From contig CANKYV010000001.1 of NCBI GenBank assembly GCA_947487955.1, positions 43,644-107,643 on the forward strand: a DNA stretch of 64,000 nucleotides. Direction: 5' to 3'. The notes beneath the pieces were generated by a model. That model ran no database searches and had not been told where the DNA came from. It saw only the letters and a program-made list of their open reading frames with translations. Positions 14,871-41,458 of the stretch are shown here, one piece after another. The stretch comes from Alphaproteobacteria bacterium. Lineage in GTDB: Bacteria > Pseudomonadota > Alphaproteobacteria > Paracaedibacterales > CAITNM01. Numbering within the stretch: the stretch's first letter is position 1; each line of letters opens with the position of its first letter. The translations under genes and the position numbers were made by a program.

Positions 14871-14946
14871 GCCGGCTTAGCTCAGCTGGTAGAGCAACTG
14901 ATTTGTAATCAGTAGGTCGCGGGTTCGACTCCTGCAGCCGGCACCA
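14871..14946 (+). tRNA. tRNA-Thr (anticodon UGU)
   Basis: GCCGGCTTAGCTCAGCTGGTAGAGCAACTGATTTGTAATCAGTAGGTCGCGGGTTCGACTCCTGCAGCCGGCACCA. Acceptor stem is GCCGGCT/AGCCGGC, anticodon stem ACTGA/TCAGT, loop TTTGTAA, and CCA is encoded. Confidence 0.92.
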
Positions 14947-14947
14947 G
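14901..14947 (+). repeat. attL core (3' 47 nt of the functional tRNA-Thr)
   Basis: atttgtaatcagtaggtcgcgggttcgactcctgcagccggcaccag. It is identical to 39515-39561 except for one base (G at 14923). Confidence 0.85.
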
Positions 14948-14992
14948 TTAAACTGCGAGGTTTAAAGCAATTTCAAATTTATAAAATTCCTT

Positions 14993-15011
14993 GGGGTTAC
15001 ACCGGGGTTAC
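14993..15011 (+). promoter_or_regulatory. tandem GGGGTTAC sites (candidate integrase arm-type binding site, left arm)
   Basis: GGGGTTACaccGGGGTTAC with 11-nt periodicity, 46 nt inside attL. A near-identical copy lies at the other end of the element. Confidence 0.45.
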
Positions 15012-15266
15012 TTTTTCAAGTAATTTTAGTTTCAGTTCAGTGTAAAAGTTTTCTAATTCTTGTTATTAACGAAAAGGGTTGATTTTGCTCTCGCAACAAA
15101 TTGGGCTCGTGGATACCCCCCTAAGGATTGGGATAGTAAGTATTTTCTAGATAAAGTCACTTAATCGAGCCAAGTTAATGGATAAGTCAAATTTAGTGAG
15201 TCGGTTTTGCGATGAAATCAAGCCAAGAGATTTATAAGAGCAGCCCCCACAACTAATAGTTAGAAT

Positions 15267-16193
15267 TTACGGAAGCACAAAAGGATTTATTGTTCTCCAA
15301 TGTTCCGGATATGATTCAGTCTCATGTAGATATTTCATCAGATTACGCTGAATTCCTTCTGGGTGACTCATAAAATGGCCGTCTTTATACCTTGGCAGTG
15401 GAGCCACCACTATAGCTTTTGGATTGCAGCATAAATATGCGGCCCACCAAGAAAACGTGGAATTAGCAATAATCAGGTTTTTACATTGAGTCATTAAGTA
15501 AAATTCTTCAAGATTTGTTGCAGTGCCATCGCCTGGTGAAACGATAACAACATTTTCCAAATTAAAAAAACAATCTTTTACAAAGGCAGGGTCATCTGAA
15601 AATACAAAAAACTTTACATTTTTTTGTTTTGAAAAAAGCTGCATCGCTTGCATATAATAGGTCATCGGCATAATTCTATCTGGATAATTTCTAAAATCTC
15701 CACGACGAATATGAATTGCAACGCTGTTACATGTTCGTATTTGAGGCAAATATTTTCTTATAAAAGGAGTGCTTGTCTTTTTTAACGAGAAGATTTTATT
15801 AATATCCTTTGCGCTCTCTTTAAAAAAGATTTCAGACTCAAAAAAACTGCCAATAAGTATTCTTCCTTTACCTTTTAAGGTATTGAAGTCATTCCCCTCC
15901 CAAACAAATATAAAAGGTTCTTTATTAAATTCTTCTTCAGAGATAACGTCGACCCCATCTAAATGGAAATCTTCCTTATTGATCCTATATTTTCTATCAT
16001 TAGGATCTCTTAAATTGCCTCTTTCATTATTGCTAACAATAATCTTAAGATCTGCATCGATAATTTTAGCCAGATTGTATGCAGCAGCAAATTGAAACAT
16101 CTGATTGCCAATGCCTGAGTCTAATTTTACAAAAACAGTATCCTTCGAAAATAAAGCCGCGGAAAAATAAAGAAATAATAAAAAATATTGCAT
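15267..16193 (-). CDS. glycosyltransferase family 11 (alpha-1,2-fucosyltransferase-like) with an N-terminal hydrophobic anchor
   Basis: 308 aa with GT11 signatures GIGNQMFQFAAAY, AIHIRRGDF, VFSDDPAFV and ANSTFSWWAAYL. A 16-aa hydrophobic leader (MQYFLLFLYFSAALFS) comes before the first motif, and I found no alternative in-frame start. Confidence 0.8.
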   Translation of the reverse strand: MQYFLLFLYFSAALFSKDTVFVKLDSGIGNQMFQFAAAYNLAKIIDADLKIIVSNNERGNLRDPNDRKYRINKEDFHLDGVDVISEEEFNKEPFIFVWEGNDFNTLKGKGRILIGSFFESEIFFKESAKDINKIFSLKKTSTPFIRKYLPQIRTCNSVAIHIRRGDFRNYPDRIMPMTYYMQAMQLFSKQKNVKFFVFSDDPAFVKDCFFNLENVVIVSPGDGTATNLEEFYLMTQCKNLIIANSTFSWWAAYLCCNPKAIVVAPLPRYKDGHFMSHPEGIQRNLMKYLHETESYPEHWRTINPFVLP

Positions 16194-16310
16194 TAGTGGT
16201 AGTTAATTTAATTTGTATAATTGAGCTTTAAGAATAAACATGATTACTCTCAAAATCAAGAAAAATGAGCTTTTACTTTTGCGTAAAAGCCTTTTTATAT
16301 TCCTCACCTA

Positions 16311-16760
16311 TCATTTTTTATTATTATTCCATATTTTTAATTGTTCATCACTTGGCCAAGCATATGGATCCTCTGGAGGGCCCATGTTTGGAATATCACT
16401 TGCTAAGATTTTTCGACAAATATCCTTAAGATCATCCTTATAAAAATCAACCGCTTTTTTTTCTTCATCATCTAAAACCAGTAATTCTTCAGGTGAATAT
16501 TTTAGTCGTTTCTCATCTTTAGGAAATTCTTCTAAATCAGACCACATTGCTTTTAAAGATAAAAAATCTTCTTCACTAATTTCTTTGCAATAAGCTTCAC
16601 AAGCTTGTAATACATTGTATATTACTACGCATGCATTACATATATCTGCCGATTCATCTAAAACTCCCTGAACAGCTTCTAGCATTAGTTTGCGAAGGTT
16701 TTCTTTACGTTCAGACTTTGACATCTTAAATAACTGTTCACTTCTTAATCTATTTAACAT
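16311..16760 (-). CDS. candidate immunity protein of the orphan toxin module
   Basis: 149-aa acidic ORF overlapping the end of the orphan toxin ORF by 11 nt. Its position is equivalent to the 96-aa ORF behind the main toxin. No family was recognised. Confidence 0.4.
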   Translation of the reverse strand: MLNRLRSEQLFKMSKSERKENLRKLMLEAVQGVLDESADICNACVVIYNVLQACEAYCKEISEEDFLSLKAMWSDLEEFPKDEKRLKYSPEELLVLDDEEKKAVDFYKDDLKDICRKILASDIPNMGPPEDPYAWPSDEQLKIWNNNKK

Positions 16761-17058
16761 CTTTCACAAACTCCTTTACTTTTTCAGCTACTCTTTGACC
16801 AGTTTTAATATTTTCCACCCAATGAGTCTGAATTGAGATTTTGTGGTCTACATCAAAGCTCGTGCTGCTTTTTTTGACCCAGTCTTCAGCTTGACCACCA
16901 TATTGCTCCGCAAATTTTTTAGCATCTCGAAAAACTTTTTTTCCTGTTGGAGTTATAACCACTCCGTCTTCCTTCAATTGTTGCTCTTTCGCAAGATATT
17001 CTTTCAATCTTTGCGTTAGCAGAACTTGTTGCAGAATTGCTGGGGTATTCAGCCTCAT
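16750..17058 (-). CDS. orphan toxin C-terminal domain (alternative CT cassette)
   Basis: 102-aa ORF directly downstream of a segment homologous to the pre-toxin region of the 2525-aa gene. PAILQQ aligns with DAILQG of the main protein, and the sequence diverges completely afterwards. Confidence 0.45.
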   Translation of the reverse strand: MRLNTPAILQQVLLTQRLKEYLAKEQQLKEDGVVITPTGKKVFRDAKKFAEQYGGQAEDWVKKSSTSFDVDHKISIQTHWVENIKTGQRVAEKVKEFVKDVK

Positions 17059-17096
17059 GCGCCTTGATCTTCACTCTCGGCTGAACACTCTTAAAT

Positions 17097-17154
17097 CCAA
17101 CTTTTTCTGCTGCAGAGGCAAGTTTGGCATTGGTTGCTCCATAGAGTTCATTAG
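17097..17154 (-). repeat. homology handle shared with the main toxin gene (copy of 17832-17889)
   Basis: My hand alignment gives 7 mismatches in 58 nt. It encodes NELYGATNAKLASAAEKVGFK versus KELYGAANAKLASAAEKVGWK in the main gene. Weaker similarity continues for ~40 nt further downstream. Confidence 0.75.
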
Positions 17155-17441
17155 TTTTTATTTAAGAGGTTTTTTATATGACTAATGTTTTCCTCAATTG
17201 TTATTTGATCTTGTTCTTCCATTGTGCTCTTTTCTAGAGATGATGCATAAGCAATCTCAAGTGGCCACCAGTAATCAAGAATAATCTTTTTAAATACCTC
17301 TTCAGTAATGTTTTCTCCACATTCCTCAATTCTTTTAATTAAGCTTCCTAATGATAATCTTTGATTATCGTAGTCATTGATAGCTTTTGAAATTTCATCA
17401 AGTAAACGCTTATCTGGGTTATTTAATTTTAATGATTTCAT
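17151..17441 (-). CDS. candidate cognate immunity protein
   Basis: 96-aa ORF whose ATG overlaps the toxin stop codon (ATGA at 17438-17441), the typical toxin-immunity coupling. No family was recognised. Confidence 0.5.
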   Translation of the reverse strand: MKSLKLNNPDKRLLDEISKAINDYDNQRLSLGSLIKRIEECGENITEEVFKKIILDYWWPLEIAYASSLEKSTMEEQDQITIEENISHIKNLLNKN

Positions 17442-20400
17442 TTTCCAAACCTCGCAGTAACGACACGTCCATTTTCCGTAATAACAGTAACATTATTTTT
17501 TGCATCATAATGAGAAATTCTTCCAACCACTTTGTTTGGCACTTTTACACCATGAGTTATGGCTTCTTTTACTACAGAAGGAGGTATACCTCTTTCCATC
17601 AACCTATCAAGAGCATGACTAGAAAATTCCATGTCTTCGATTCGCTTTGGTGAATTATGATATTTTTTTAATGGTTGCATTTGGGTTCTACTACTTCCCA
17701 CTGGTAAGCTTGGATATGCATTGCCATCATTGATCGTATACTGCTGTACTACTGTTTTCTTTTCTCCTTGTAATATTGCATCTTCCGCCTCTTTTGCTTT
17801 CGGCATTACTTTTGTTTTGCCACTCTTCCACCCCACTTTTTCTGCTGCTGAGGCAAGTTTAGCATTAGCTGCTCCATAAAGTTCCTTAGCTTTTCCAAGG
17901 GTTTGTGCTGCTTTACTGCCCGTAATCTTGGCAATGATCTGCCCATACTTTGGATAATTGCTCATCAGCGCTGTCCACGCAGCTGCAGCGCTTGGGTAGA
18001 ACACCGTTCCTATTACATAGCCGGCACCTACTGTTGCTAAGGTCACAACCCCCATCACTGCTAACTGCTGTAGTGCCGCTTCTGGCCCTTGAGTACGATA
18101 GGTATCATACACCTCATAGGCACCATATGCTGCCAATCCCAGAGTAATAACCGTACCAATGGTTGGTTCCCAATTGTGGGTGCCCGCAACGCCACCAATG
18201 TGAGAGGCTAATGCCGCATCTTGGCCAAGAAGGGCAGCAATCGCTGCGGAGGATAACTGGGCCGTACGTAATTCAGAAGCGAGATCTTCCTTAACTGCTG
18301 CATTAATTTCTTTGATTTTTTCAGGATTGACTAGGGTACCGTCTTGCTTAGCTTCTTCCATTCTGGCAATGGCTTTTTCTGCTAAATAATCATTACGCGC
18401 TTCTAAAATGGTTTCGGTTACTGCAGCACCAATGGCACCAGAGATAAATCCTTTGGCGGTGCCATCCATAACAAACCCCATCGCACCACCATTGAGGCTG
18501 TGGAGGACTTTATGCAATGTATAGGTGTCTTGATGGTGAGTTCCCTTGTACCAATCTCCAATATGAGCAGCTCCATAGGCACCTGCTGCGCTACCGACAA
18601 ATGACAAACCTCCGCGCTTTAAAATATCGCCCGCTTCTTCGTTAGAAAGAGCTAAATTCATTGTGGTGGATACGCCAGCTTGTAACCCCTCAGTTTTAAG
18701 GTGATCTACCAGTTCTAAAGGTTTTGTATCAAGGGGAATATCCCATGCTTTAGCGAGCTTATTAGTTAATCCAGCACTTGCAATGCTAATTGCTAACCCA
18801 CGCAATGCACGATCAGAAGCTAAGTTTTTTAAAGTTCCCTCTAAATCACCTGTTTGCGCAAAGCTTGTAGCGGCTGAACAGATTAAATACTTTAATCCTG
18901 CAGAGGCCATTGTGGCTCCAATCTCTGACCCCAAGGCACTTGTAAAAAATGAGGTACCAACGCCTTGAGTAGCAAGGCTAACCGCAATAGCAATTACCGA
19001 TATTGCCGCACTAGGAATAACCTGATGGTGATGTGCCCAACTTTCTTGCCATTTCTTTAAGATATAAACGGATTCTTGGTATCTTCCTAAAATCTCGACT
19101 CGTTCACGATCTTGCCAAACACATGAGACAAACTCCATTTCTCCCGGAGAGGTGACATCATCAAAACTTGCTGAGCGCACAATACGGCGCACATTCAACG
19201 ATGTTGGAGCCATTAATTCTTGACCACCTCGAGTACCACAGTTACTGCTAGATAAAGGCGTACGCGAAGACGTACTCATTTCATAGCGCATTTCCCTGAC
19301 AGTAGGGCCAAACTTTGCACCTTTCCGTGAATGGTCTTCTATGGTATCTGCGGTAATTTCAGTGCCTTTTACACTAACCGTATCTTGTCCTTCAAAACGA
19401 ATCGTATGGGCATTTAGCATATTACGTACAAAGGTTGGCATTTCCATGAGACTTTTTGTCGTGCGACTGCTAGAAGTTCCTTTTGTTGTCGAAGTTGTTT
19501 GCGTACGATTAATTCCTACTCCCGCATCAATAGACAAATTCTGAGAAGCATAGGTTAAATCTTGGGCAGCATGTTCTTCAACACCTACTTGAGTGACATT
19601 TTTCCCAACAACTCGGCTACTAATGCCAGCGATAGCTTTATTTACCAAAAAATCTGATGACTCTGCTGTTGTTACAGTTTTTTTGGTGCTTCCAAAAAAT
19701 CCTCTATCCTTTTTTTCTGTAGTAATTGCTCTTTTGTGAAGCTCAAGCGCTTTAAAAAAAGCATCGCCTTCTTCAGATCCACGCAGCATCTTGCCACCAG
19801 CACTGCTGACACTTCCAACTTCTGTATAATCTTGTGTGCTAACGGAAGTAAGGTCTCCTTCCTCACAAATGAATTGCTGTTGAGGTTTAGCTTTTTCAGA
19901 AATAGTTGTCTTATTGCCTTCTTGCAAAATTTCCACATATTTAGCCGTATGACGTTTCATTTTTCCTTTAGCACGTGCTTCAAATGCTTTTCTTGCAACG
20001 ATACGTGAACTTTCATGCTCTTGATCACCAGAGGTAAGCAGATGGACTTCCTTGCCGTATATATCACCTGAAGATTGGTAAGGATTCACAAACTTCGCTG
20101 GTACTAATAAATGAGGAATACTAAGCATTGTCTGTTGTACTTGTCGAGCCACCATAGCAACAAGTGGTTTTGTAGCTTTTGCCACCAACTCATCCAAACT
20201 CATTGTGCTTCCACTGTCACGACCATTACGGAATAAATATTCCTGTAGTGCCATTGAGCTTTGTTCTTCAAAGTTTAAATGTCCAACGCTTTCTGCAAGA
20301 GCTTTTTGTAGCGCAAATTCAAAAGCTGTTTCGCTGATCGCACTTTCTTCTCTTGCGCCAATTGTTGCGATATCTAAGGACTTCCAAGAAAACCTTGATG

Positions 20401-23400
20401 TAATCGGGTACAATGAGTCAACTTGACCAGTATCTTGCAAAGCAAAAAAACCACCTGTTTGAGACTGTGCCACTTCGTATAAATCAACAATCAAGAAGTT
20501 TTCTGATTGAGGTGCTCTAGTATGGCCCACCATCTTTGTCACAATGCTGTTTACATCAATGTGTACCTTTCCACCAGCACTCATACTTCCACTAATAGTA
20601 ATAGCATCTGGTCCTTGGATAAGAATATCTTCACCAACTTTAAGAGAAGCTGGTGTAGTACCAAATATATTAGAAAAACTACCTCCTACCCATGACGGGT
20701 TTGACCCGCATTCCATCTCTTTTCTCGGCACAAGATTAAGCCCAGATACATAGTTTTTACCATAACCAGCTATAAGCTCCTGAAATTTATAAATACCTTT
20801 TCCTGCGCTAATGTTGCTATATTGAATATCTACTTGTGGTACATTAAACCAAATGTCTTCTAACGCTGTTGTTTCACCTGCGTCCGCACACTCTAAAAGA
20901 TATCGTATACCTGTGTACTCGCCACGATTATGGGTACCAAACCACATTTGGTTGGGTCTCGTACATACATATCGATCTCCATAAAAATAGGCGCTATGAC
21001 GAGTGCGTATTAACCCAGAAATATTGCGAATAAGATTGCCGCATATCGTCAGAGCATGATTTGCAAAGACTTCACCGTAATCCAAGCACATCTCGCCAAA
21101 ATATCCTCCTAACTTCATGGAGCTATTACTCGAAACAAAAGCGCCATTAAAAGTTTTTTTAAGATAAGTAGGACTTGTTAGTAAATTAGAACAACCGTTA
21201 TATATCGTTGTCATATTGCCTCGAGGTACGTGAGGCGTAATAACTTCTTTCAGTGACCCTACTAAAATATTTCCCTCTAAGGTTTCAATGGCTGACTCTT
21301 TATCACTAAAAATTCTACCAAACCTATTATCTATTTTTCCTTGAGAATAAACGTTGATCGCTCCTTGAGTTGCCGAAATTTCACCAAGATGATCATTATC
21401 TGTTCCATTGGTAAATTCGTCACAAAGAAGTAGTAAGTCACCCAAGATCTTGCCCTTATTCCAAAACTTCTTCGTTCTTAGAATAAGTGGAGACTCAACA
21501 CTTAACTCTACTGTGTTGGTAAAATCCGCATCGTAATTTACCTGTAAACTCTCCGCCATAATTGCTGATTTTTGCAAGGCATCCATCAAACTTATAGGTG
21601 TATCGACAGCAGAATGCAGAATAAGCTGTGCCGCATTGCTGTCATCCTCTTGATCTCTAAAATACCCAGAACTTATTTGCGTAATTACATTTTTATAGTG
21701 TTTTTGTAAAAGTGGTTTTCCTAAACCTTGATTCTGCATAAAATGCTTGGCAAAAGCATCGTAAGTCTCTTTATAGAGTTGCCTCACAGATTGTTGCTGC
21801 TGATAAAAGCTTTTACCAACACCCGTAGCAATAGTGTCTATTGTTGTGGTGTTCTCAGCAGAAATACCTTTCAGATACTCTAGTCCCCAAGCACCAGTTA
21901 AAATATTGATAATTGCTTTATCCATTGCCACAACAACAGCTGGAATATCTGGGTAAGCTTTAAGATACTTTGCCTCAATGGGTACTTCTTGATGATCCCA
22001 GAGTTGTGCTTTTACTTCGTGTAACAGCTTGATAATTGATATTGGGTCTTGGCTATAGCCTAAGTGTGAGAGGACCCTCGTCCATTGGTTGCGAGTTTCT
22101 TCTAAAGAAAGTTCTGTAAACAGTCGTTTTGGGTGCTCTTCAGAAAGAGCTAGAAAACCTATGAGTCCTGCAACAGGATTACCTCTTACGTTAGCTAAAT
22201 AGGCCTCCTCATCTCCTGTTGAGCTTAGCAAAACAGCATCTTGAATTTCTGCAAAAAATGCAGAGGGCATCGTCGCTGGGTAAGGTTGAGCATGATCGGG
22301 AAGAATATACCAAATTGCCTTATCATCAATAACGAATTGACCCAATCCTTCTGAAGGATTTCCTGTAATTTTTACACTTTGGGTTGCATAAAGTGCTCCA
22401 GCATTTTTATAGCGCACAACTTCTGTACGTTTACCAAGTTTACAAACAGCCTCTTCTGCGTTTGTAAAATCTTCAAAGAACCAATGACCAGCCCCTAGAT
22501 CCGCATACCCCAAATTATGAAAAGATTGCAATCGTAAACCTTTACGTAAAACTTCCAAATGTCCAGTATTTTGAACTTGGTCAACACCTCGCAACACTTT
22601 TGTTATTATTTTTCCTGCATTATTTAGAGTACGATCTGGCTGCATAAGCTCTAAAGCAGAACTCTCCACAATGCCTTCAACCGCATTGGTAAAAACACCA
22701 TCTATAGTGGTTTTTTGTTCTGCAGCAATAGTTCCAATATTGTGTAAATGGTGACCTCTCATCAGGACCGTTTTACCTTGCAAATGCCCCGTATTTTCAA
22801 AGTTTTCTGCTTGGTAGGTTACTCTAAGTTCTTGCTGAGCTACGTATTTGTATAAATCATCAACATCCTCAGCTCTTGACTGCTCTGAACTCTCCTCTTT
22901 TTTGGTAGCTATCAACTGTTGCAGTTGCTCGAGGCGTTGAAGTTTTTGCGCATTTTTAGCAATTTGTCGCTTAATTAAGGTAGATTCTTCGGTAAGATTT
23001 TTTAATTCCTGCTTCTTTCTTGCATGTTCTAATCTAATCGGCTCAACACAAGCACGTAAAAATTTCTCGATAGGAAAGCCTGGTAGTTCTTCTAAAAGAT
23101 TTCTCTCCGCAGCAAAGTGATCATACAGTTCTTGCCAACGGGTACTGACAACACTTAAGCAACTCTCACGAGCTTCTTGATCCTCTAAAACCTGAGTTCG
23201 TGCTTCACCTAAGTTTACTTCTACTTCATCAAACAACGCCATACGTTCTCGAGGTGATAGACCCATGATAGTGTCCAAACATGCAGATACTGATGTATTC
23301 AAAGTGCCCAGTTCATCATCCAAAATGAGCGTATTGAGTTGCATGTGTTTAATAGTATCAACAATGCTTTGTTGTGCCAGATTCAGACCAATAGCGATAA

Positions 23401-25015
23401 AAGTTAAATCTAGCGAACTTGCTTGAATTGATTTACCACCTAAAGTGTGAACCTTAACTATCAAATCTTTAGGAGATTGTATTGCTTGGAGTAGTAATGC
23501 TTTTGCCTTAAGAGTAGCTCTATTTTTAAATTTTACCAATTCAGGAGGCAGCTCTAATCGTTGCTCTGCTTGCCAATCAACCTCACCTAATCCGGGAGTA
23601 ATTCTGCTTATCGCTAAACTTCTAACCTTAAAAACAGAATCTTGAGAAAAATCTAATGTATCGACCCGAAGATCCGTACCAGCTAACTCTAAATGAAGAG
23701 TATCTCCTTGAAGAATGTCTAATGCTAAAAGGCTATTATCTCCATGACTGACAAGCGATAGCCTACCACCTTCAAATCTAGCTTTATCACCCTTAGATAA
23801 AAGCTGCTGAAAAGCAAATTCAAGAGTTGATGCTTTAAAATGCCCTTGACCATCCCATATGTTTGCAAAAGATTTAAGGTTCTCAGCAACAATACGTCCT
23901 TTACCTGTGAGGTTTTGCCCTGCAACATAAGTACGAGAACCTTTTAGGACTCCCTGATTAGAAAGCCCAGCTAAACTAATTACCTGCAAATCAGCCGTAC
24001 CAGTTATACAAGCATCTACATCATTAACAAACTGATTTTGCGCGATAATATGAGTTGACGTTGAAGTAATTGTTTGATGATTTAAAAACTGCAGTGCACC
24101 TACAGCAAAGGTTATTGCGGAAATTTGTCCAAAATTTTCAAAGAGCTTTAAATCAGCAAGGCGTAATTCGCTATCATTTGAAATTGTTCCCCAATTGTAA
24201 ATTTCACTACCCTGCAACCTTAAAAAGGATTTATTAAATCCAGAAACCTTATCGAGGAATAGACTACCCAGGTTCACAAAATTTCCGTGAAATAGTAATT
24301 CTTTTAAACGTAGAGAACCTTTTTCGCCAATGAGTAAACTACCAGCTGCTTGACCTGATTCAATTTCAAAGTTTTCAATATCGACAGCATTGTGCACAAC
24401 AACTTCTGGACTCTGTAGGTGTAGGTGTTTTGCTCTATATGCTCCCAAGTGAACAGCAGGAGCAGCAATACTACAGCTTCTTTGATACCGTGGTGTAACG
24501 GCTTGATCAATAATAACGGCACCGTCTGGGCGTATTTGCAGCGATACCAAACCATAAGCACTTAAGTTCCATGACCACCCCCTTAAAAGGGCATCTGTTC
24601 CAATAATAGGCACAACAAAGCTTGTGTCTTTGTTGTGGTTAAAATCTGTCCCTAGATAAAACCTGCTTATTAACCGATCTTTTTGCTGTAAGGAAACAAA
24701 AAAGTGTTTTTGATTGTCATCTCCAATATCTTTAATGCTGATTCTAAAATCGACTTGGTCTTTTTTGTCTAAAGAAAGGTTTCTCGGTAAATAGAATTGA
24801 GGTTTTAGCAAGGGTTCAGATGGTGACATATGCTCATGATGAGCATGAAACCTGGGCGCTGGAGGAGGAAGAACTTCGGCTGTACTTGCATACACGGGCG
24901 AAATGACAAAACTCAATAAATACGCATACAAAACAACTGAAGAAATGACTTTGCGTATAAACGATGGTGGTACAGCGTTTTCAAGGTCTTTGGTAACAAC
25001 AAATTGTTTAAACAT
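17438..25015 (-). CDS. giant secreted polymorphic toxin (CdiA-like C-terminal architecture, DUF4258-like C-terminal toxin domain)
   Basis: 2525 aa with RBS GGAAGGAAG and a signal-like N-terminus (VVLYAYLLSFVISPVYA/ST). It has beta-helix-like repeats, a coiled coil, and a Gly/Ala-rich DUF637-like region (HKVLHSLNGGAMGFV...GAIGAAVTE). A pre-toxin segment is followed by a ~115-aa tail with an SSHALDRLMERGIPPS motif. Confidence 0.8.
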   Translation of the reverse strand: MFKQFVVTKDLENAVPPSFIRKVISSVVLYAYLLSFVISPVYASTAEVLPPPAPRFHAHHEHMSPSEPLLKPQFYLPRNLSLDKKDQVDFRISIKDIGDDNQKHFFVSLQQKDRLISRFYLGTDFNHNKDTSFVVPIIGTDALLRGWSWNLSAYGLVSLQIRPDGAVIIDQAVTPRYQRSCSIAAPAVHLGAYRAKHLHLQSPEVVVHNAVDIENFEIESGQAAGSLLIGEKGSLRLKELLFHGNFVNLGSLFLDKVSGFNKSFLRLQGSEIYNWGTISNDSELRLADLKLFENFGQISAITFAVGALQFLNHQTITSTSTHIIAQNQFVNDVDACITGTADLQVISLAGLSNQGVLKGSRTYVAGQNLTGKGRIVAENLKSFANIWDGQGHFKASTLEFAFQQLLSKGDKARFEGGRLSLVSHGDNSLLALDILQGDTLHLELAGTDLRVDTLDFSQDSVFKVRSLAISRITPGLGEVDWQAEQRLELPPELVKFKNRATLKAKALLLQAIQSPKDLIVKVHTLGGKSIQASSLDLTFIAIGLNLAQQSIVDTIKHMQLNTLILDDELGTLNTSVSACLDTIMGLSPRERMALFDEVEVNLGEARTQVLEDQEARESCLSVVSTRWQELYDHFAAERNLLEELPGFPIEKFLRACVEPIRLEHARKKQELKNLTEESTLIKRQIAKNAQKLQRLEQLQQLIATKKEESSEQSRAEDVDDLYKYVAQQELRVTYQAENFENTGHLQGKTVLMRGHHLHNIGTIAAEQKTTIDGVFTNAVEGIVESSALELMQPDRTLNNAGKIITKVLRGVDQVQNTGHLEVLRKGLRLQSFHNLGYADLGAGHWFFEDFTNAEEAVCKLGKRTEVVRYKNAGALYATQSVKITGNPSEGLGQFVIDDKAIWYILPDHAQPYPATMPSAFFAEIQDAVLLSSTGDEEAYLANVRGNPVAGLIGFLALSEEHPKRLFTELSLEETRNQWTRVLSHLGYSQDPISIIKLLHEVKAQLWDHQEVPIEAKYLKAYPDIPAVVVAMDKAIINILTGAWGLEYLKGISAENTTTIDTIATGVGKSFYQQQQSVRQLYKETYDAFAKHFMQNQGLGKPLLQKHYKNVITQISSGYFRDQEDDSNAAQLILHSAVDTPISLMDALQKSAIMAESLQVNYDADFTNTVELSVESPLILRTKKFWNKGKILGDLLLLCDEFTNGTDNDHLGEISATQGAINVYSQGKIDNRFGRIFSDKESAIETLEGNILVGSLKEVITPHVPRGNMTTIYNGCSNLLTSPTYLKKTFNGAFVSSNSSMKLGGYFGEMCLDYGEVFANHALTICGNLIRNISGLIRTRHSAYFYGDRYVCTRPNQMWFGTHNRGEYTGIRYLLECADAGETTALEDIWFNVPQVDIQYSNISAGKGIYKFQELIAGYGKNYVSGLNLVPRKEMECGSNPSWVGGSFSNIFGTTPASLKVGEDILIQGPDAITISGSMSAGGKVHIDVNSIVTKMVGHTRAPQSENFLIVDLYEVAQSQTGGFFALQDTGQVDSLYPITSRFSWKSLDIATIGAREESAISETAFEFALQKALAESVGHLNFEEQSSMALQEYLFRNGRDSGSTMSLDELVAKATKPLVAMVARQVQQTMLSIPHLLVPAKFVNPYQSSGDIYGKEVHLLTSGDQEHESSRIVARKAFEARAKGKMKRHTAKYVEILQEGNKTTISEKAKPQQQFICEEGDLTSVSTQDYTEVGSVSSAGGKMLRGSEEGDAFFKALELHKRAITTEKKDRGFFGSTKKTVTTAESSDFLVNKAIAGISSRVVGKNVTQVGVEEHAAQDLTYASQNLSIDAGVGINRTQTTSTTKGTSSSRTTKSLMEMPTFVRNMLNAHTIRFEGQDTVSVKGTEITADTIEDHSRKGAKFGPTVREMRYEMSTSSRTPLSSSNCGTRGGQELMAPTSLNVRRIVRSASFDDVTSPGEMEFVSCVWQDRERVEILGRYQESVYILKKWQESWAHHHQVIPSAAISVIAIAVSLATQGVGTSFFTSALGSEIGATMASAGLKYLICSAATSFAQTGDLEGTLKNLASDRALRGLAISIASAGLTNKLAKAWDIPLDTKPLELVDHLKTEGLQAGVSTTMNLALSNEEAGDILKRGGLSFVGSAAGAYGAAHIGDWYKGTHHQDTYTLHKVLHSLNGGAMGFVMDGTAKGFISGAIGAAVTETILEARNDYLAEKAIARMEEAKQDGTLVNPEKIKEINAAVKEDLASELRTAQLSSAAIAALLGQDAALASHIGGVAGTHNWEPTIGTVITLGLAAYGAYEVYDTYRTQGPEAALQQLAVMGVVTLATVGAGYVIGTVFYPSAAAAWTALMSNYPKYGQIIAKITGSKAAQTLGKAKELYGAANAKLASAAEKVGWKSGKTKVMPKAKEAEDAILQGEKKTVVQQYTINDGNAYPSLPVGSSRTQMQPLKKYHNSPKRIEDMEFSSHALDRLMERGIPPSVVKEAITHGVKVPNKVVGRISHYDAKNNVTVITENGRVVTARFGK

Positions 25016-25465
25016 TTTTATCTTCCTTCCCTGCTTGGGTAGTCATTTTAAAAAAACTTAAATCTACATGTACGATCAAGCCGCAAAACTATAAACTTTT
25101 TGAACATACATGTTCCCGTTAGTTTCTGTGCACGCACAATATCTTTCATGTAGTCATTAAAAAAATAAAACGAGGGGTTTTTGAAAAGTTTTCGTCACCT
25201 CCTATTTTAGGTAGGCAAGCTTTTATTTTGTATAGCCAGTGATGTACTGATCTAAAGACTAAAGCTGATTGCATCATGAGAATCCTCAAGCTTTTTCTTA
25301 GCTGTCTTTTTTTATACCCAAACTTCAAAAAAATAAACCTGGATAATTATACAGGTATCGATAAAATTTTAGGGATTTCCGCTTATAAGAGATGGCGATA
25401 AAAGCTTTTGAAATCCTATCTTCATTCTTTTTAGTCATATTTCAACACCCTCAAGTTTCGTGTCT

Positions 25466-25798
25466 TTATTCATCTAGCTCTTCGGGCTTTTTAATCGTTG
25501 GAATAAAATGCTTTGTGTAGTCTTCAAAGGGACTAAAAAAAGTGAAAATTTCGACTTTTACTTCATGCATTCTCTCAAACGCACGAAGTGAAGCTCGAAG
25601 ATTATCTGAAACACGTTGAATTTGTTCTTCAATCGTATACATACCTGCATACTGTTCATCTTCACGCAATGTCCGAGCAGCATTCTCCATCCTTCCCATA
25701 AAAGCCATGACTTCTTCTAAGCAAATGCCAACTTTAGGCCATGTGGTAATACGAGATTTTTCTTGTTCTGGCTGCACATTATATTTCTCGGACATCAT
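25466..25798 (-). CDS. hypothetical helical protein upstream of the toxin gene
   Basis: 110-aa ORF in the same orientation as the toxin and divergent from an XRE-type regulator. No family was recognised. Confidence 0.4.
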   Translation of the reverse strand: MMSEKYNVQPEQEKSRITTWPKVGICLEEVMAFMGRMENAARTLREDEQYAGMYTIEEQIQRVSDNLRASLRAFERMHEVKVEIFTFFSPFEDYTKHFIPTIKKPEELDE

Positions 25799-25892
25799 TT
25801 ACCTCCAACGACATGTTAGAAGTAAATCACCTTATTCTTTGACTATTGTCAAGTATTTATTTTTATACTCTTGGTTCATAATTCCCCTTGCT

Positions 25893-26126
25893 ATGAAAGA
25901 CCTCACTGAACCTCAAATTGTTGCTCTTGTTCTGGATGCAATCAGCACCAGACGTAAGGAACTTGGTTTGTCTATCCTAAAGCTTGCAGATCAATCACGA
26001 GTCCATTATTCGACGATCAGCCTTCTTGAACACAAAAAACGCAACCCAAGCTTTTTGGTGATCTTAAGGCTGTGTAAAGCACTAGATCTTTCTTTGCTTG
26101 ATCTTCTTAAAAGGAATGAGAAGTAA
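25893..26126 (+). CDS. XRE-family helix-turn-helix transcriptional regulator
   Basis: The 77-aa version starts at the internal ATG 25893 (MKDLTEPQ...). HTH core is LGLSILKLADQSRVHYSTISLLEHKKRNPSFLVILRLCKAL. The upstream part of the track ORF overlaps the divergent gene and looks non-coding. Confidence 0.7.
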   Translation: MKDLTEPQIVALVLDAISTRRKELGLSILKLADQSRVHYSTISLLEHKKRNPSFLVILRLCKALDLSLLDLLKRNEK

Positions 26127-26329
26127 AAAATTGATATTAAATGAACGAGCGAGATTATAGAAGCCGCTAGAAGTTGCTTATTAATTGGCAAAAAGTCAGT
26201 GATTAGCTATATTCAACAATTAAATATAAACACTTAAGAAAAAATATGTCTCTTACATTGCGAAACATTGAAGGCAAGGTCGCTTTCAATGAAATTGAAT
26301 TACATATATACCTTCCCGATTTTAATGAT

Positions 26330-26812
26330 TTAATAAACATGAAAGTTGGTCCTATCAACAGTCATTAAAGGAAACTTTCTAAAAGGGTATGCTAATTTGT
26401 TCCAAGACTGTTTTATTCCATCCCAAGAGCTAAGCCCAGCATACCATTGATTGTCATTTTTTATGTTATTGTTCTTTTTAAAATTAGCTCTTTCTGTTTG
26501 ATACGGGATTACTTGATTTGTTATAAATTTAATTAAAGTCATTCTAGTGTGTTCAAATGCTGCTAAAGACGCTTTAATTTTAGCTTTTCTCTCAGAGCAA
26601 GTCTTCAGCCAAGTTGGCAACAAAGAAAGCACAAAACCAAGAATTACTCCGAAAAGTACTTCATTTTCCCAAAAAGATTTATGGCTTAGGTCTTTTTTAG
26701 CAAAAGACTCCTTTAGTTCACTTAAACCATTTGCAATGCTTTGAAGAGATGATGCAACATGATGAAAATCTTGTGTTTGAATCCAAGAGTAATAACTCGA
26801 AAAGCTATCCAT
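26330..26812 (-). CDS. hypothetical membrane protein
   Basis: 160-aa ORF with one clear hydrophobic helix (VLFGVILGFVLSLLPTWL). No family was recognised. Confidence 0.4.
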   Translation of the reverse strand: MDSFSSYYSWIQTQDFHHVASSLQSIANGLSELKESFAKKDLSHKSFWENEVLFGVILGFVLSLLPTWLKTCSERKAKIKASLAAFEHTRMTLIKFITNQVIPYQTERANFKKNNNIKNDNQWYAGLSSWDGIKQSWNKLAYPFRKFPLMTVDRTNFHVY

Positions 26813-27064
26813 GTATTAGCCTTTTTCCTAGGTTACTTGCGCCTTTCTACTACATTTACTCTAAAAATGATATATATTGTTTAGAATTTTAATCAGCTAA
26901 TTTTTCCCCTATCTTAAATCTCATTTCTCTTAATCTACTTTCACCAAGCAAAACAGCCCTTTATATAATCAAGAGTCATTTAGAAATTTGCTAAATGCGT
27001 ACTTATGCGATGTGTAAAAATGAGTTACATTTTATGCATCGATTGGTGACCTACGGCGTTATTT

Positions 27065-27361
27065 ATGACAGTAAGAATGCAAAAATTTCGTGAGAGGAAA
27101 AGACAAGAGGGATTCGTCCAAGTACGAGTTTGGGTACCTCAGGATCATGAATTATTGATCAAAACTATTGCGAAAGAATGTCGACCTGGCAAACCTCTTA
27201 AACTGCGAGAAAGATACGGAAGACCCGCATCGCCATCACAAATCCGCTTAGCTAAATCATTTGCAACAGCGCATGGTAAAGAACCGCCAGAGCATCTCTA
27301 TGATCACCACATCAGTTTATCTGCTTGGATGTGGGCGCATGGCGGCAGGCCGTTTGAATAA
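27065..27361 (+). CDS. hypothetical protein with an antitoxin-like (DUF3018/RHH-type) N-terminus
   Basis: 98 aa. The N-terminus (RMQKFRERKRQEGFVQVRVWVPQD) resembles the basic-helix-plus-strand start of small DUF3018-type antitoxins. The C-terminal 55 aa are unrecognised. Confidence 0.35.
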   Translation: MTVRMQKFRERKRQEGFVQVRVWVPQDHELLIKTIAKECRPGKPLKLRERYGRPASPSQIRLAKSFATAHGKEPPEHLYDHHISLSAWMWAHGGRPFE

Positions 27362-27459
27362 CCTCTGTACCTATAACATTTTATAGGTAGATTTTTGAAT
27401 CATACTTGAAATACAAAATTAAGTTACTAAATTAGAATATAAAATTCGCACAAGAGTTG

Positions 27460-36002: not shown

Positions 36003-36870
36003 ATGACAAGAGAATATATACAAGAAAATGGGATATTCATCCCCTCTGATTTGACATTGAATGAATGCATTGAAAGGTTAGAAAAGCGAAATATTGATAG
36101 GTCAGAACTTATTCTTAGTTCTTATTCAGATAAGCAAAAATGGAAAACAATGATTAACTTTCACCTTTTGGCGTGGGTGTATCGAATAACAGAGCTTGCA
36201 AGAGATATTAAAACCTTAATAACAAATGAAAGGTTTAATACTGCATGGACATGCACCCGCCCTTTTTTAGAAGCAATTATTATTTTCACAGACTATTTGC
36301 GCAGAGCAAAAAATGCAATAGATCAAGATAATGATAAAGAAATAGCTCTACTGTTTATTACGATATTTTCAAGAACAAAGCATGAAGAATTTTTGGACAC
36401 CCAATGTATGGATGTTTCTGTTGATCCTCACATGGAAGTAATAAAAATTAAATATGGGATAAATGAAGAAGAATACATTAAGGCTCTGAAAGCTCCTAAT
36501 AACCAAAACGTTATAGATTCTTTAAGTGAAAAGACGTTTTTTTGAAGGTTATTTTGGATCGGATGCTAAGAATATGAAAAGTGAATATGACGTTCTTAGT
36601 GAATACACACATGCCTCTGCTTTATCAACAAGTGGCCATTATATAAATTATATCTACGCTAACAATAAGCCAAATACCATCGTTTTGACCCGTACTGGGG
36701 TAGATTCGGAAGGATTAAAAAGCCATATAGAGAAATGCTTACAATATATTTTTGTTTTTGAAAAGGTTTATGAAGATTTTTCCGCTTTAGAATCTTGTAT
36801 TGCTGACAAGCTTTCTCAAATCGTCAGTAAAAATAAATCAACTAACAATGCCGAAACAACTACAGTGTAA
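36003..36870 (+). pseudogene. unknown gene split by a +1 frameshift in a T7 run
   Basis: ORFs 36003-36545 and 36526-36870 overlap. Removing one T from TTTTTTT (36536-36542) gives a continuous ...SEKTFFEGYFGSDAK... protein of ~288 aa. No family was recognised. Confidence 0.5.
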
Positions 36871-36875
36871 GACCA

Positions 36876-37733
36876 TTAGCATTTTCCATTCTGCTTTCTC
36901 CTAGCATGGTACTTCTTGCCTTCTTTTTGCTCGGCAAGACGAATGAATTTAGCAAGATAAGGAATATCAGACGATGAAATATCTAGTTGATGCTTTTTGA
37001 TGTACTCTTCAATAAATACTTGAATACTGTCTTTTGCCACTTCTGCTAATTTATCTTTTCCGTGTTCTTCATAAACAGCATTTAGTACCTGCAACCACGG
37101 GGTTGTATAAGTATTGAGATTAATTAAAGACGATGAATTACAAGGTGCGGAGGATGACTTCGGAGAGGGTGGTGCATTAACGCTACTCCTTACTTCTTCT
37201 TCCTTAAAATAAATACTCCCATAAAATTTACCTATAGAGCGAAGATCGCCACAAGCTGCTCCATCTATTAATAGGCGATACCAATGTATATCATAAGACC
37301 AAAATTCTGCGGGTAGCTCATGGTAAGCATAATCTGATAATACATATGATTTAAACTGATTTCCCGATAGCATACTTCGACATTGATGCATAACCAAGAA
37401 TTCAAGCGTATCTTGCATAAAGGAATTCTGATCAGGGTATGCTTTTTGTACGTTATCTATCTTTAATAATTGATATCTTTCATCATTACGGATTGCGATC
37501 TTTAAATTTAAGAGCTTAAAGTGCAGGGGATATTTCTGCTTTTCAACTAGGTAATCCATGACGTTTGGATGCGCAACATCAAACATTGAATATGCATGAT
37601 AGTCATCGGTGATTTCTTTTCCAAACTCTGCTGGGGTAATTTTTGATATAATTGGCTTGGCGAATCCTTTTCCTACCAAGTAAATAAGTTCATATATATT
37701 TATGTAGCCGGGCGCAGATCTAATACTAACCAT
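36876..37733 (-). CDS. hypothetical protein (285 aa)
   Basis: Long ORF downstream of int on the same strand, with a Ser/Pro-rich linker (NAPPSPKSSSAPCNSSS) between two domains. No family was recognised. Confidence 0.4.
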   Translation of the reverse strand: MVSIRSAPGYINIYELIYLVGKGFAKPIISKITPAEFGKEITDDYHAYSMFDVAHPNVMDYLVEKQKYPLHFKLLNLKIAIRNDERYQLLKIDNVQKAYPDQNSFMQDTLEFLVMHQCRSMLSGNQFKSYVLSDYAYHELPAEFWSYDIHWYRLLIDGAACGDLRSIGKFYGSIYFKEEEVRSSVNAPPSPKSSSAPCNSSSLINLNTYTTPWLQVLNAVYEEHGKDKLAEVAKDSIQVFIEEYIKKHQLDISSSDIPYLAKFIRLAEQKEGKKYHARRKQNGKC

Positions 37734-38138
37734 TATTGTTCCTTTTTAAGTAATGAGATTTCTTTGATGTACGTCAAATCATCACCGTAAAAATATTATA
37801 ATTTATTGGCACATATATCGTTGAAATCAATAAATAAACATCAGATTTGGTAACATAGGACTAATTTTGATTAAGTTTCATAAATGAATCAAGAGCAAAA
37901 ATATGAGCGGGAAGAAGAATAAGTTATGAGGGAATCTTGTTGCTTGTCCTTAACGATTTTTGGAGTACATCATAATGAGTTTAAATATCATTCTTAACAA
38001 AATCCGTCTGATATGGAATTAGCTACCATATTTGCCGAGAAATATTTTGGATCAGCATGCTTACTGGCTTATCATGATAACATAAACAATCGCATGATTA
38101 AGACGTTTAAATTGTATTTTCGATACTGAGTTACGTTT

Positions 38139-39347
38139 CTAATTTTTATGTTTAAATGACTCTAGGCTAACAAGCTGCTTTATTCCTCCTGCAGCTAACA
38201 TGGCACCAGTTGCACGATTAACAGATTCACGTACAGGATCTAAATCTAGCCGTGCATAGATTGCAGTCGTACTTGGTGATTTATGGTTTAATGATTTACC
38301 AACTATCACCAGTGATGCACCTGTCTTTGCTTGCCAACTTCCCAGTGTACGCCGCAAATCATGAATCCTTAGGTTGGCAATTCCAGCGCGTTCTAATAGA
38401 CGTTTCCAGGCCTTTTTTGGCTCAACAAGATGACCGGTAACACCAGATCCAGGAAAAACCCATGGAGAACCCTTATCTTGCCTTGTTCGCAAGATTTCAA
38501 CAACCTCGGGCGTCAGAGTAACTGTTTGAGAATCACCATTTTTAGTAATGGGTATGCGCCATTCTCCACGTTCTAGATGTATTTGAGACCATTGCATTGC
38601 TTGAACATTAGAACGCCTAGCTCCAGTTAATAGCAAAACAAGAAAATAGTCTCGCAACGTGTCATTTGGTTCTTTAGCTAGTGACTTAAAAAAGTCAGGT
38701 AATTCATCGGATTGCAAAAAGCGGTCGCGCTTAGTCTCGGGAAATTTTTTGATGCCTTGTGCTGGGTTACCCCCATTAAATAGGCGATGCTCAGAGGCAT
38801 AGCTGAACAAACTAGATGCCATTGCTATAACACGATTAGCAGTAGTTGGGTGATCAGCACCAATCTCAGTGTGTAGTTTAATAAAATCTGTATCTTTAAA
38901 TTGGGATAATTGTCGTTTATTCCATTTTGCTAGATACGAATTAAAGTCATATTGATACGTACTTTTAGTTTTTTCAGAAAGGTATGCCCCTCTCTTATTA
39001 CGGCGATGTTTAAGAAATTGTTCGAACAACTCCAGTAAAGTTGTTTCAGTTTTTAGTGAACGCACGTCAGAGTTCGGGTTAATCCCTTCAACAATCAATG
39101 CATTAATCCGTGCTGCTTCTTTACGGGCTTGCTCGATAGACATATCGGGATAGCGTCCCAGGGTTACACGCTCAGGGTTACCTTTTTTAAGACGTTTAAA
39201 AACACAAAACGTTTTTACTCCAGTACTGGTGACGCGTATCTGTAGGCCGTTTGTTTTTTTATCATGATAAGATTGACGTTGACCATTAGCTGGCAATGGC
39301 AGGATATCTAAAACAGCCTTAGTAAAATTGATTTTGTTGTCTAACAT
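38139..39347 (-). CDS. int: tyrosine recombinase/integrase (P4-type, DUF4102 arm-binding N-terminus)
   Basis: 402 aa. N-terminal KKTNGLQIRVTSTGVKTFCVFKRL, catalytic residues in LTGARRSNV, HDLRRT and LNHKSPSTTAIYARL (Tyr). Confidence 0.9.
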   Translation of the reverse strand: MLDNKINFTKAVLDILPLPANGQRQSYHDKKTNGLQIRVTSTGVKTFCVFKRLKKGNPERVTLGRYPDMSIEQARKEAARINALIVEGINPNSDVRSLKTETTLLELFEQFLKHRRNKRGAYLSEKTKSTYQYDFNSYLAKWNKRQLSQFKDTDFIKLHTEIGADHPTTANRVIAMASSLFSYASEHRLFNGGNPAQGIKKFPETKRDRFLQSDELPDFFKSLAKEPNDTLRDYFLVLLLTGARRSNVQAMQWSQIHLERGEWRIPITKNGDSQTVTLTPEVVEILRTRQDKGSPWVFPGSGVTGHLVEPKKAWKRLLERAGIANLRIHDLRRTLGSWQAKTGASLVIVGKSLNHKSPSTTAIYARLDLDPVRESVNRATGAMLAAGGIKQLVSLESFKHKN

Positions 39348-39375
39348 ATTTTTCTCTAGCTTATCTGATTCATCT

Positions 39376-39394
39376 GGGGTTACACAGGGGTTAC
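39376..39394 (+). promoter_or_regulatory. tandem GGGGTTAC sites (candidate integrase arm-type binding site, right arm / int promoter region)
   Basis: GGGGTTACacaGGGGTTAC in the same orientation as the left copy. It lies between the int start codon (39347) and attR (39515). Confidence 0.45.
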
Positions 39395-39514
39395 AAATTG
39401 GATGAAATTTAGCTTGTTTTTATGCAACTTCATTAAACTAACAATAAGAAATAATCCTTTGTAGGTAAAGAATTATTAAGTAATATTAATCAAGAAAAAA
39501 TGATAGACCTCCAA

Positions 39515-39561
39515 ATTTGTAATCAGTAGGTCGCGGATTCGACTCCTGCAGCCGGCACCAG
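39515..39561 (+). repeat. attR core (displaced partial tRNA-Thr 3' half)
   Basis: atttgtaatcagtaggtcgcggattcgactcctgcagccggcaccag. There is no 5' half upstream. The A at 39537 replaces the T-stem G53-equivalent. Confidence 0.85.
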
Positions 39562-39800
39562 CTCTTCCGTTATTGATGCCATCTCTCCCTATTTATTTTA
39601 ATACAGCTAAGCAAGTCGCGAATTTTTAACGTAAATCATTCAAAGTACCTTCTTCACCTTCAAGTTTGATAAACTCGCTAAGTTATGACACGAAGTAAAA
39701 TTATTTTTTCCAGAGGAAAAATTTAAAATTTTGACGTAGGCATAACTCACTTAGAAACCACACTATTGCTGTGAGGATGTAACTGAGTAGATAGATAGCC

Positions 39801-40220: not shown

Positions 40221-40252
40221 TGGATATGAAACACTAGCGCTCACCTAATTAC

Positions 40253-40810: not shown

Positions 40811-40866
40811 TTATTCCTCGTGTATAAAAAACTAAGTTCTAAGCGTTTATAAAAGCACTCTTTCCA

Positions 40867-41367: not shown

Positions 41368-41458
41368 CTTTTTTTCATCTAAAAAAATTAATAAAGTACC
41401 TTTAACAAAAAATATAAAGAAAAAGCTACCTATAAAAAACTATAGGTAGGTGTAAATT

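Follow-up and report, generated by a model that had tools for sequence, protein, structure and literature searches.

Gram-negative phage-inducible chromosomal islands (PICIs), such as EcCICFT073 (PMC6092414), and capsid-forming PICIs (cf-PICIs) carry an integrase gene (int) at one end, an alpA regulator and a primase or replication module. The PICMIs (phage-inducible chromosomal minimalist islands) of Vibrionaceae have a core of int, alpA and primase, often with one small gene between alpA and primase, and end with a direct repeat upstream of int, on the far side from their target fis (PMC10803314). P4-type islands and prophages of the CP4-57/KplE1 IntS-like kind encode integrases with PF13356 and a tyrosine recombinase domain, restore their tRNA target by element-borne sequence, use an AlpA/Vis/TorI-type helix-turn-helix (HTH) excision factor and have the int promoter region among the arm sites. 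The geometry of a regenerated target with a displaced tRNA fragment is the basis of Islander (PMC4383910), and an attB reaching from the anticodon loop to CCA is a described integrase sublocation class (preprint 10.1101/2020.11.02.365908). These features recur, the excision factor as a candidate, in an island from an alphaproteobacterial assembly (GCA_947487955.1, contig CANKYV010000001.1). The stretch analysed, referred to as the window, is 64,000 nt long. With a probability of about 0.85, window positions 14948-39561 are a 24,614-bp island inserted by its own tyrosine integrase in the tRNA-Thr(UGU) gene of a Finniella-like bacterium belonging to the Paracaedibacteraceae.

The tRNA-Thr(UGU) gene at 14871-14946 on the forward strand is intact. 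It was called as tRNA-Thr(tgt) by ARAGORN and is 77/77 identical to the tRNA-Thr of the related loci L003 and L016. A 47-nt identity block starts at A31, at the edge of the anticodon loop, and spans tRNA positions 31-76 plus one base past CCA; this block (14901-14947, forward strand) is the attL core. When up to three mismatches were allowed, it had one other copy in the window, the attR core at 39515-39561 on the same strand. None is expected by chance, and none occurred in 100 shuffles. The original prediction had described this repeat with its one mismatch, and ARAGORN and a repeat search confirmed it. Further copies of the 47-mer had been named there as a sign of a generic repeat; within the 64-kb window there were none beyond the two, and no third tRNA-Thr fragment, shorter ones included, was found.

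The sole mismatch between the cores, G14923 versus A39537, was read directly from both copies and falls on the G53 equivalent of the T-stem, as had been claimed. G14923 is position 53 of the 76-nt tRNA, in which linear and canonical numbering coincide, and the G53-C61 pair closes the T-stem. With A at 39537, the distal copy lacks this pair. G53 is present in the tRNA-Thr genes of all three relatives (L003, L004 and L016) and also in the displaced tRNA copy of the sister island L082, so A53 is the derived state. The earlier view of the distal copy as the displaced, decaying original 3′ half is supported by these comparisons. The geometry is that of Islander-type elements: an intact tRNA is followed downstream on the same strand by a co-oriented displaced 3′ fragment, an integrase gene lies within the interval, and the interval is absent from related genomes in comparisons that are all cross-species (L003, L004 and L016, and L082 against L003). 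The identity block begins at the anticodon loop and reaches the tRNA 3′ end, and relatives share its edge, which would place the site in the anticodon-loop sublocation class.

Related species were found with this site nearly empty. The HgmA-like gene to the right of the island (41459-42613) was closest to Candidatus Finniella inopinata and other Paracaedibacteraceae metagenome assemblies, with 92-94% protein identity for the best matches. The distance from tRNA-Thr to the HgmA-like gene was 184 bp in L004, 424 bp in L016 and 1077 bp in L003, and in all three the gene order runs on into the left flank of the window, tRNA-Gln included. Compared with these loci, the extra DNA of the window reaches from 14948 to about 41420, comprising the island and 1.9 kb. 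No homologue of an island protein was present in any of 81 flank-related loci. As the tRNA and the gene at 41459 are almost contiguous in related species, the interval between tRNA-Thr and the distal copy (14948-39561) is an insertion. The 1.9 kb at 39562-41458 differs between species and is a hypervariable spot adjoining the integration site. In the window it holds three ORFs (open reading frames), encoding proteins of 139 aa (amino acids), 185 aa and, with DUF4410, 166 aa; only the 185-aa ORF has a homologue (in L005), and a phnA-like ORF takes their place in L003, L016 and L082.

The sequence GCTCT follows CCA in L003, L016 and L082 and is also found at the attR of the window; a clean same-species empty site would join the tRNA to CTCTTCCGTTATTG. 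L004 is an unclean empty site. About 75 nt after its tRNA (11230-11335) align with the island-side left end of the window and include a degenerate arm-motif region, and the phnA-like gene is absent as well. A former island was probably deleted here, with this stretch as its scar. The only other record of the left flank of this organism was L001 (Logan SRR21686648 contig, 1214 nt, 99.7% identity). It stops at window position 14925, inside the 47-nt repeat, which would fit an assembly break at an att repeat in another sample, although this is not conclusive.

A related island occupies the same tRNA-Thr site in L082, a near-conspecific metagenome contig. Its integrase is 83% identical to that of the window, and its 47-nt fragment, 169 nt upstream of int, is 100% identical to the tRNA. 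The chromosomal flank of L082 shares 96% identity with the empty L003 and 94.5% with the empty L016. This homology breaks exactly at the inner edge of the 47-nt copy, as site-specific integration at the anticodon loop predicts. Its alpA and small ORF are 69% and 62% identical to their window counterparts; the primase differs and is of DUF927 type. In L082, alpA follows int after 1.1 kb; therefore, the corresponding 5.4 kb in the window are an expanded cargo site.

The integrase gene (38139-39347, reverse strand) is full length and combines an N-terminal arm-binding domain (Arm-DNA-bind_3, PF13356, E = 4.4e-15) with the catalytic domain PF00589 (E = 2.9e-25). It begins 168 nt inside the distal repeat copy and reads into the element, in agreement with the earlier description of a P4-type integrase about 170 nt inside this repeat. 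The catalytic residues R, H-x-x-R, H and Y are kept in TGARRSN, HDLRR, NHK and AIYAR, which were invariant in 15 sequences; domains and catalytic residues are thus those of a P4-type integrase. Against 50,697 phage records, all of the best matches inspected showed 31% identity or less.

Both arms of the insertion carry a tandem motif on the forward strand. The P′ arm motif GGGGTTACACCGGGGTTAC is located at 14993-15011, 46 nt after the tRNA 3′ end, and the P arm motif GGGGTTACACAGGGGTTAC at 39376-39394, where 28 nt separate it from the int start codon. The 19-mer GGGGTTACACNGGGGTTAC has exactly two copies in the 64 kb, one per arm, with none expected by chance. A third, inverted copy, which reads GTAACCCC on the forward strand in relatives and is conserved in L082, L083, L084 and L104, is degenerate in the window (GCAACTTC at 39424-39431). 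The window showed no additional arm-motif set that would point to a tandem composite. Two relatives, L093 and L118, have the arm motif at the same position and in the same tandem form as the P′ arm of the window.

The arm motif varies by locus and co-varies with the N-terminal, arm-binding domain of the integrase. In every one of the four relatives that share the motif of the window, conservation is higher in the N-terminal 95 residues than in the rest of Int; in all ten with another motif it is lower (58% versus 75% in L086). The sequences are phylogenetically non-independent, so this co-variation is suggestive and no proof. It favours integrase arm-type sites over excisionase sites, and the tandem motifs are probably such sites. 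A promoter and terminator scan around attR was uninformative.

The original prediction had noted that int sits next to the partial tRNA copy and had called this the opposite of the common arrangement of tRNA followed by int. The layout is as described, but it is no oddity. Of 21 relatives whose upstream sequence could be read (31-83% identity), 19 have the same integrase-distal module. These 19 comprise 15 metagenome loci (41-83% identity) and four IMG/VR loci (31-45%); L104, with 88% identity over only the 125 residues on its contig, was counted among the metagenome loci. The module begins with an opposite-strand tRNA 3′ fragment reaching to the anticodon loop or stem and continues with a spacer of approximately 120-170 nt, a tandem motif and int. 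The motif consists of two to three tandem 8-9-mers with a period of about 11 nt and lies 20-40 nt from the int start codon in most loci. The fragments derive from at least seven different tRNAs, including Thr(UGU), Thr(GGU), Lys(CUU), Arg(UCU), Ile(GAU) and a tRNA with CAU anticodon. ARAGORN found no complete tRNA beside them. The two exceptions are L097 (40% identity), with the classical order of full tRNA and then int, and L099 without a fragment. With 19 of 21 relatives sharing it, the integrase-distal layout is no rearrangement or peculiarity of the window island; among the sequences compared, it is a conserved trait of the integrase lineage.

Some of these relatives show the module in other genetic contexts. 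L093 (1015-7792 of AOMP01000082.1) is a whole 6.6-kb element at a tRNA-Thr(UGU) that is bounded alike, and its tandem motif recurs 46-66 nt past the tRNA 3′ end. Its genes are int, alpA and those for a CHC2 zinc-ribbon protein, an AAA_25 helicase and the small subunit of a terminase (E = 1.3e-13). In appearance it is a minimal satellite that shares the att architecture. At the end of the 63-kb viral contig L118, the order of motif, 46 nt, fragment, motif and int is attP-like. L116 (IMGVR_UViG_3300037390_000101, 1-10244) has an integrase and alpA 41% and 66% identical to those of the window, together with primase, helicase, major head protein, portal and large terminase genes; this gene set resembles that of a capsid-forming PICI. 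L084 and L089 have a DUF3987 primase, the type used to define PICMIs, and L090 carries a VgrG, a nuclease effector and an immunity set as cargo. Judged by gene content, the lineage with this module spans islands, satellite-like elements and phage-like contigs. The IMG/VR relatives were reached only with an Int alignment; single-protein scans of IMG/VR with Int and with the primase found nothing.

Two further observations concern the targets. In L104 (750-1423), the N-terminal 125 residues of Int are 88% identical and the GTAACCCC motif is the same, yet the fragment is that of a tRNA-Lys(CUU). This would be a target switch that kept the arm module; the contig ends before the catalytic domain. 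In L087 (1-141) and L114 (9672-9800), a second, different tandem motif pair lies a short way beyond the displaced copy, at about 50-60 nt from the tRNA 3′ end. This outer pair resembles the left arm of another island, and tandem arrays probably form at these tRNAs.

The earlier statement that alpA and primase genes lie inside the element was correct. The alpA gene (32476-32709, reverse strand) encodes an HTH_17 protein (PF12728, E = 1.7e-9), a candidate excisionase, or recombination directionality factor, and activator. It scored 30.4 bits against the TIGR01764 excisionase model, above the cutoff of 28.8, and its only solved relative was the recombination directionality factor RdfS (8dgl, E = 1e-3). 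In 17 full-length related loci, alpA is 43-69% identical, and two more gave partial, weaker matches. The replication protein (30133-32205, reverse strand) combines a Toprim primase (E = 6e-6) with a C-terminal DUF3631 (PF12307, E = 3.5e-40) and matches the DNA primase/helicase phrog_239 (E = 4.8e-17). No related solved structure was found for it. Between the two genes lies a conserved small ORF of 121 aa (32096-32461, reverse strand), the one with the L082 counterpart given above. It overlaps the primase ORF by 110 nt, the two match consecutive parts of the NCBIfam model PRK07078, and L082 has the same split. A programmed frameshift joining them was considered and rejected: the frame offset is +1 in the window and -1 in L082. 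They are probably separate genes. The conserved backbone, made up of int, alpA, small ORF and primase, belongs to a widespread integration module.

These elements allow a recombination model to be proposed. In the circular form, attP would have the order int promoter region, P arm with tandem GGGGTTAC, tRNA copy from the anticodon loop to past CCA, and P′ arm with the same sites. As with established tRNA-targeting integrases, the 5′ edge of the identity block would mark the crossover, so that the 3′ part at attL would be island-derived and the attR copy the host original. Strand exchange in or next to the anticodon loop would join the host tRNA 5′ half to the island-borne 3′ half at attL, a junction that keeps the tRNA functional; the 3′ part of the gene at 14871-14946, from the anticodon loop onward, would accordingly be supplied by the island. 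The host's own 3′ half would have been displaced by 24.6 kb to attR beside int, and would have acquired G53A later. Excision would need Int and the AlpA-like excisionase or activator, by analogy with relatives and with satellite work (PMC6092414, PMC10803314), and the primase would then replicate the circle, as the satellite work suggests. If excision were precise, the tRNA gene would receive the copy with A53. The A53 tRNA has a cloverleaf energy of -27.6 versus -30.1 kcal/mol, and ARAGORN still calls it as a tRNA. Loss of the island would be penalised if 14871-14946 is the only tRNA-Thr(UGU) gene.

The remainder of the island is cargo, which makes up all of its left 15 kb. A family-11 glycosyltransferase, fucosyltransferase-like, is encoded closest to the tRNA (15267-16193, reverse strand; PF01531, E = 6.5e-27). 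The largest gene (17438-25015, reverse strand) encodes a 2525-aa polymorphic-toxin-like protein with a signal-peptide-like N-terminus and DUF637 (PF04830, E = 2.1e-8) at residues 2036-2197. Its C-terminal tip is weakly DUF4258-like, at E = 5e-4 and below the curated cutoff. Approximately 2000 N-terminal residues were without a family match, and DUF637 was the only domain found even at E up to 1. A 96-aa ORF (17151-17441, reverse strand), which overlaps the toxin stop codon by 4 nt, is a candidate immunity gene by position and matched no Pfam or PHROG family. It is followed by an orphan toxin module (16311-17159, reverse strand). This opens with a stub (112 nt, 17048-17159) of the pre-toxin junction that is 75% identical to 17783-17894; next come an orphan C-terminal domain with a frameshift (16750-17058), which resembles the toxin tip of L082, and an immunity-like ORF of 149 aa (16311-16760).

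A giant secreted-looking DUF637 protein with a small variable C-terminal domain and a following small ORF, and a downstream orphan tip that has its own small ORF and is preceded by a stub of the conserved junction, are also features of CdiA/MafB-type loci. In contrast to those, no TPS (two-partner secretion) domain, FHA (filamentous haemagglutinin) repeats or CdiB/TpsB partner was detected in the window island, nor a TpsB-sized ORF nearby, so the protein is not classed as CdiA. In the broad sense it is a polymorphic toxin, with a pre-toxin region, C-terminal tip, downstream small ORF and orphan tip, the immunity function being assigned from position. The L082 island ends in a toxin gene as well (15870-16481, reverse strand), which is inverted relative to the backbone when compared with the window. 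Its C-terminal domain resembles the orphan tip of the window (36% over 56 residues, E = 2e-4), which suggests an exchange of toxin tips between the two related islands.

Further cargo was located to the right of the toxin. A Cro/CI-type regulator of the HTH_3 family (25707-26126, forward strand; PF01381, E = 1.4e-10) and a 777-aa Sel1-repeat protein (27457-29790, forward strand; PF08238, E = 1.7e-16) precede the primase. The accessory block between alpA and int (33151-37733, both strands) lies in the 5.4-kb interval. It contains a SIR2-like gene (33151-34152, forward strand) with matches below curated cutoffs (SIR2_2, E = 1.3e-4; PADLOC SIR2, E = 8e-8), hipA (34238-35482, reverse strand; HipA_C, E = 1.3e-52) and an adjoining HipB-like HTH gene (35495-35842, reverse strand). 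Three more ORFs have no family assignment (36003-36545 and 36526-36870 on the forward strand, 36876-37733 on the reverse strand). The cargo includes candidate defence genes, and the int-alpA interval behaves as a cargo hotspot. Staphylococcus aureus pathogenicity islands (SaPIs; Gram-positive, PMC6092414) also place accessory genes in the gap from int to the regulator and at their far end. Vibrio pathogenicity island 1 (VPI-1) and GIVchS12 (PMC5109276) form a cargo-swapping family with shared integrase and att sites and with interbacterial weapons among the cargo, and the VPI-1 integrase has been described as marking the distal island end; their integrase is unrelated, the target is another one, and VPI-1 lacks an alpA-primase backbone. 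Two similar palindromic hairpins, TACCTATA...TATAGGTA, occur in the window, one in the island after a 98-aa ORF (27368-27396) and the other after the chromosomal HgmA-like gene (41420-41448), which L004 has too. A multi-copy repeat family was rejected as an explanation; the window has no further copies.

Several observations weigh against an insertion by the island's own integrase. The outer flank of attR was matched by cross-species empty sites over 5 nt only (GCTCT). The junction proposed in the original prediction, 14947 joined directly to 39562, was thus approached by three near-empty related species but matched no further than these bases. A same-species empty site and a circular junction were not obtained by exact look-ups of five window proteins, one of which gave a 1.2-kb contig ending inside the tRNA and the other four no record. 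No recognisable packaging or transfer function was present on the island in Pfam and PHROG scans of its 20 ORFs. The A53 change, the degenerate third arm-site copy and the frameshifted orphan toxin are signs of ageing. The GC content of the island (38.2%) equals that of the flanks (38.0%); therefore, the element is long resident or came from a similar donor. Of the composition profiles along the window, GC does not set the island apart, whereas tetranucleotide usage does and counts in favour of the insertion, with a mean distance of 0.228 against 0.177 in the flanks and peaks over the toxin gene and primase module; this test was lenient, with flank windows in the reference profile and overlapping sliding windows. 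The replication module had been thought richer in G+C than its surroundings. Its excess is real but small (0.450 and 0.433 at 30-32 kb, against about 0.38 in island and flanks) and is equalled at 18-19 kb (0.464) and at 10-11 kb of the chromosome (0.442).

Whether the island still moves is a separate matter, and two readings that both fit within insertion by its own integrase bear on it. An immobilised, decaying remnant, kept by the host for its toxin and immunity genes, candidate defence genes and Sel1 protein and no longer excising, is a tentative but serious proposal. The derived G53A points in this direction: precise excision would rebuild a tRNA with an A53·C61 mismatch, so that loss would be selected against. 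The degenerate inverted arm-site copy, the frameshifted orphan toxin, the full match in GC to the host and the scar in L004, by which an island of this lineage can be seen to be lost through deletion, agree with it. The intact Int, alpA, primase and four arm-site copies do not, and the 47-nt cores differ by one substitution only, which says little on age; whether the genome has another tRNA-Thr(UGU) gene is not visible from the window. The same intact Int, att sites and tandem arm pairs speak for a still-active phage satellite of PICI, PICMI or cf-PICI lineage, in which induction of alpA by a helper phage would lead to excision by Int and AlpA, replication by the primase and packaging in helper capsids. 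Its integration module and alpA are common to the satellite-like L093 (6.6 kb, small terminase) and L116 (10.2 kb, packaging genes), the PICMI-defining DUF3987 primase occurs in L084 and L089 (PMC10803314), and the order of alpA, small ORF and primase is that of the PICMI early regulon. On the other hand, no terminase, capsid or other PHROG structural match was found on the island, at 24.6 kb it is far larger than PICIs (12-15 kb) and PICMIs (roughly 6 kb), single-protein IMG/VR queries gave no close relative, no helper prophage is visible in the window, and excision with an anticodon-loop crossover would place A53 in the tRNA. Ongoing activity as a satellite is thus possible but rather doubtful. 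A prophage was rejected, as the island has no structural genes.

The remaining explanations differ from a single island more strongly. A composite of at least two islands, integrated in tandem at the same tRNA with loss of the internal att site, would account for the mosaic composition (GC 0.32-0.46, k-mer distance peaks at 18-24 kb and 29-33 kb) and for a size above that of the relatives, and tandem arrays occur in this integrase family, as the outer motif pairs of L087 and L114 indicate. The island nevertheless has one integrase, no third tRNA fragment and no second arm-motif set. Its extra length is explained by cargo in two places, the int-alpA interval and beyond the primase, and the accessory genes of Gram-positive PICIs likewise occupy the space from int to the regulator, or the 3′ end (PMC6092414). 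A composite origin is therefore improbable. Less probable still is an integrative mobilisable element, for which a conjugative helper would act on an unrecognised origin of transfer (oriT); several island ORFs without family assignment leave room for one, but the island showed neither a relaxase or coupling protein nor a type IV secretion gene, and the transfer-related genes of the relatives belong to phage packaging, none being conjugative. A chance or generic repeat, or a partial tRNA duplication without a mobile element, can practically be dismissed: no match is expected by chance, the arrangement of fragment, motif and int recurs in 19 relatives, and the interval is absent from related genomes.

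Insertion by its own integrase thus being preferred, the island can be compared with the described classes. As in PICIs, the integrase, replication module and alpA master regulator are in conserved order, and phage structural and lytic genes are absent from the 20 island ORFs (gene-absence criterion of PMC6092414). Relatives with 41-43% Int identity sit with a small terminase (L093) or with head, portal and large terminase genes (L116), which is a further likeness to PICIs and cf-PICIs. The size of 24,614 bp differs from the typical 12-15 kb, no terS, cos-type or capsid genes were detected, and the host is a protist-symbiont-like alphaproteobacterium instead of an enterobacterium or Pasteurella. 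Int, alpA and primase are colocalised as in the PICMI model of SatelliteFinder. PICMIs, however, integrate next to fis, are about 6 kb long and have a DUF3987 or DUF5906 primase, whereas the window island has its target in the anticodon loop of a tRNA, has four times their length and encodes a primase of Toprim-DUF3631 type. It fails PICI size and packaging and PICMI target and primase criteria and is therefore filed as neither. The int of CP4-57/KplE1 IntS-like elements is directly downstream of the intact tRNA, unlike that of the window, which is on the other arm by the displaced fragment. Pfam and PHROG gave no match to psu, sid, delta or ash-type genes, which mark P4-like satellites, and Pfam gave none to the relaxase or type IV secretion genes of integrative conjugative or mobilisable elements. 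The element is an island integrated in a tRNA gene, and its int-alpA-primase backbone is of the type usual in Gram-negative phage satellites. It is a textbook, fairly ordinary island of its kind, and its lineage includes phage satellites.

The island documents mobile-element traffic and interbacterial toxin cargo in Paracaedibacteraceae, which are protist symbionts with poorly described mobile elements, and gives a clear view of a conserved attP architecture. Software that searches for islands, and the selection of integrases as tools, can profit from the conserved integrase-distal geometry with its tandem sites at fixed spacing on both arms. The G53A change is a concrete case in which decay of a displaced tRNA fragment could penalise excision. 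It is conceivable, though unlikely and put forward as speculation, that the island is a still-mobile satellite of a protist-associated intracellular bacterium, ferrying the 2525-aa toxin and candidate defence genes from one symbiont to another, or the same kind of satellite caught in the process of becoming fixed. If it is becoming fixed, G53A would mean that precise excision leaves the host with a damaged tRNA-Thr(UGU).

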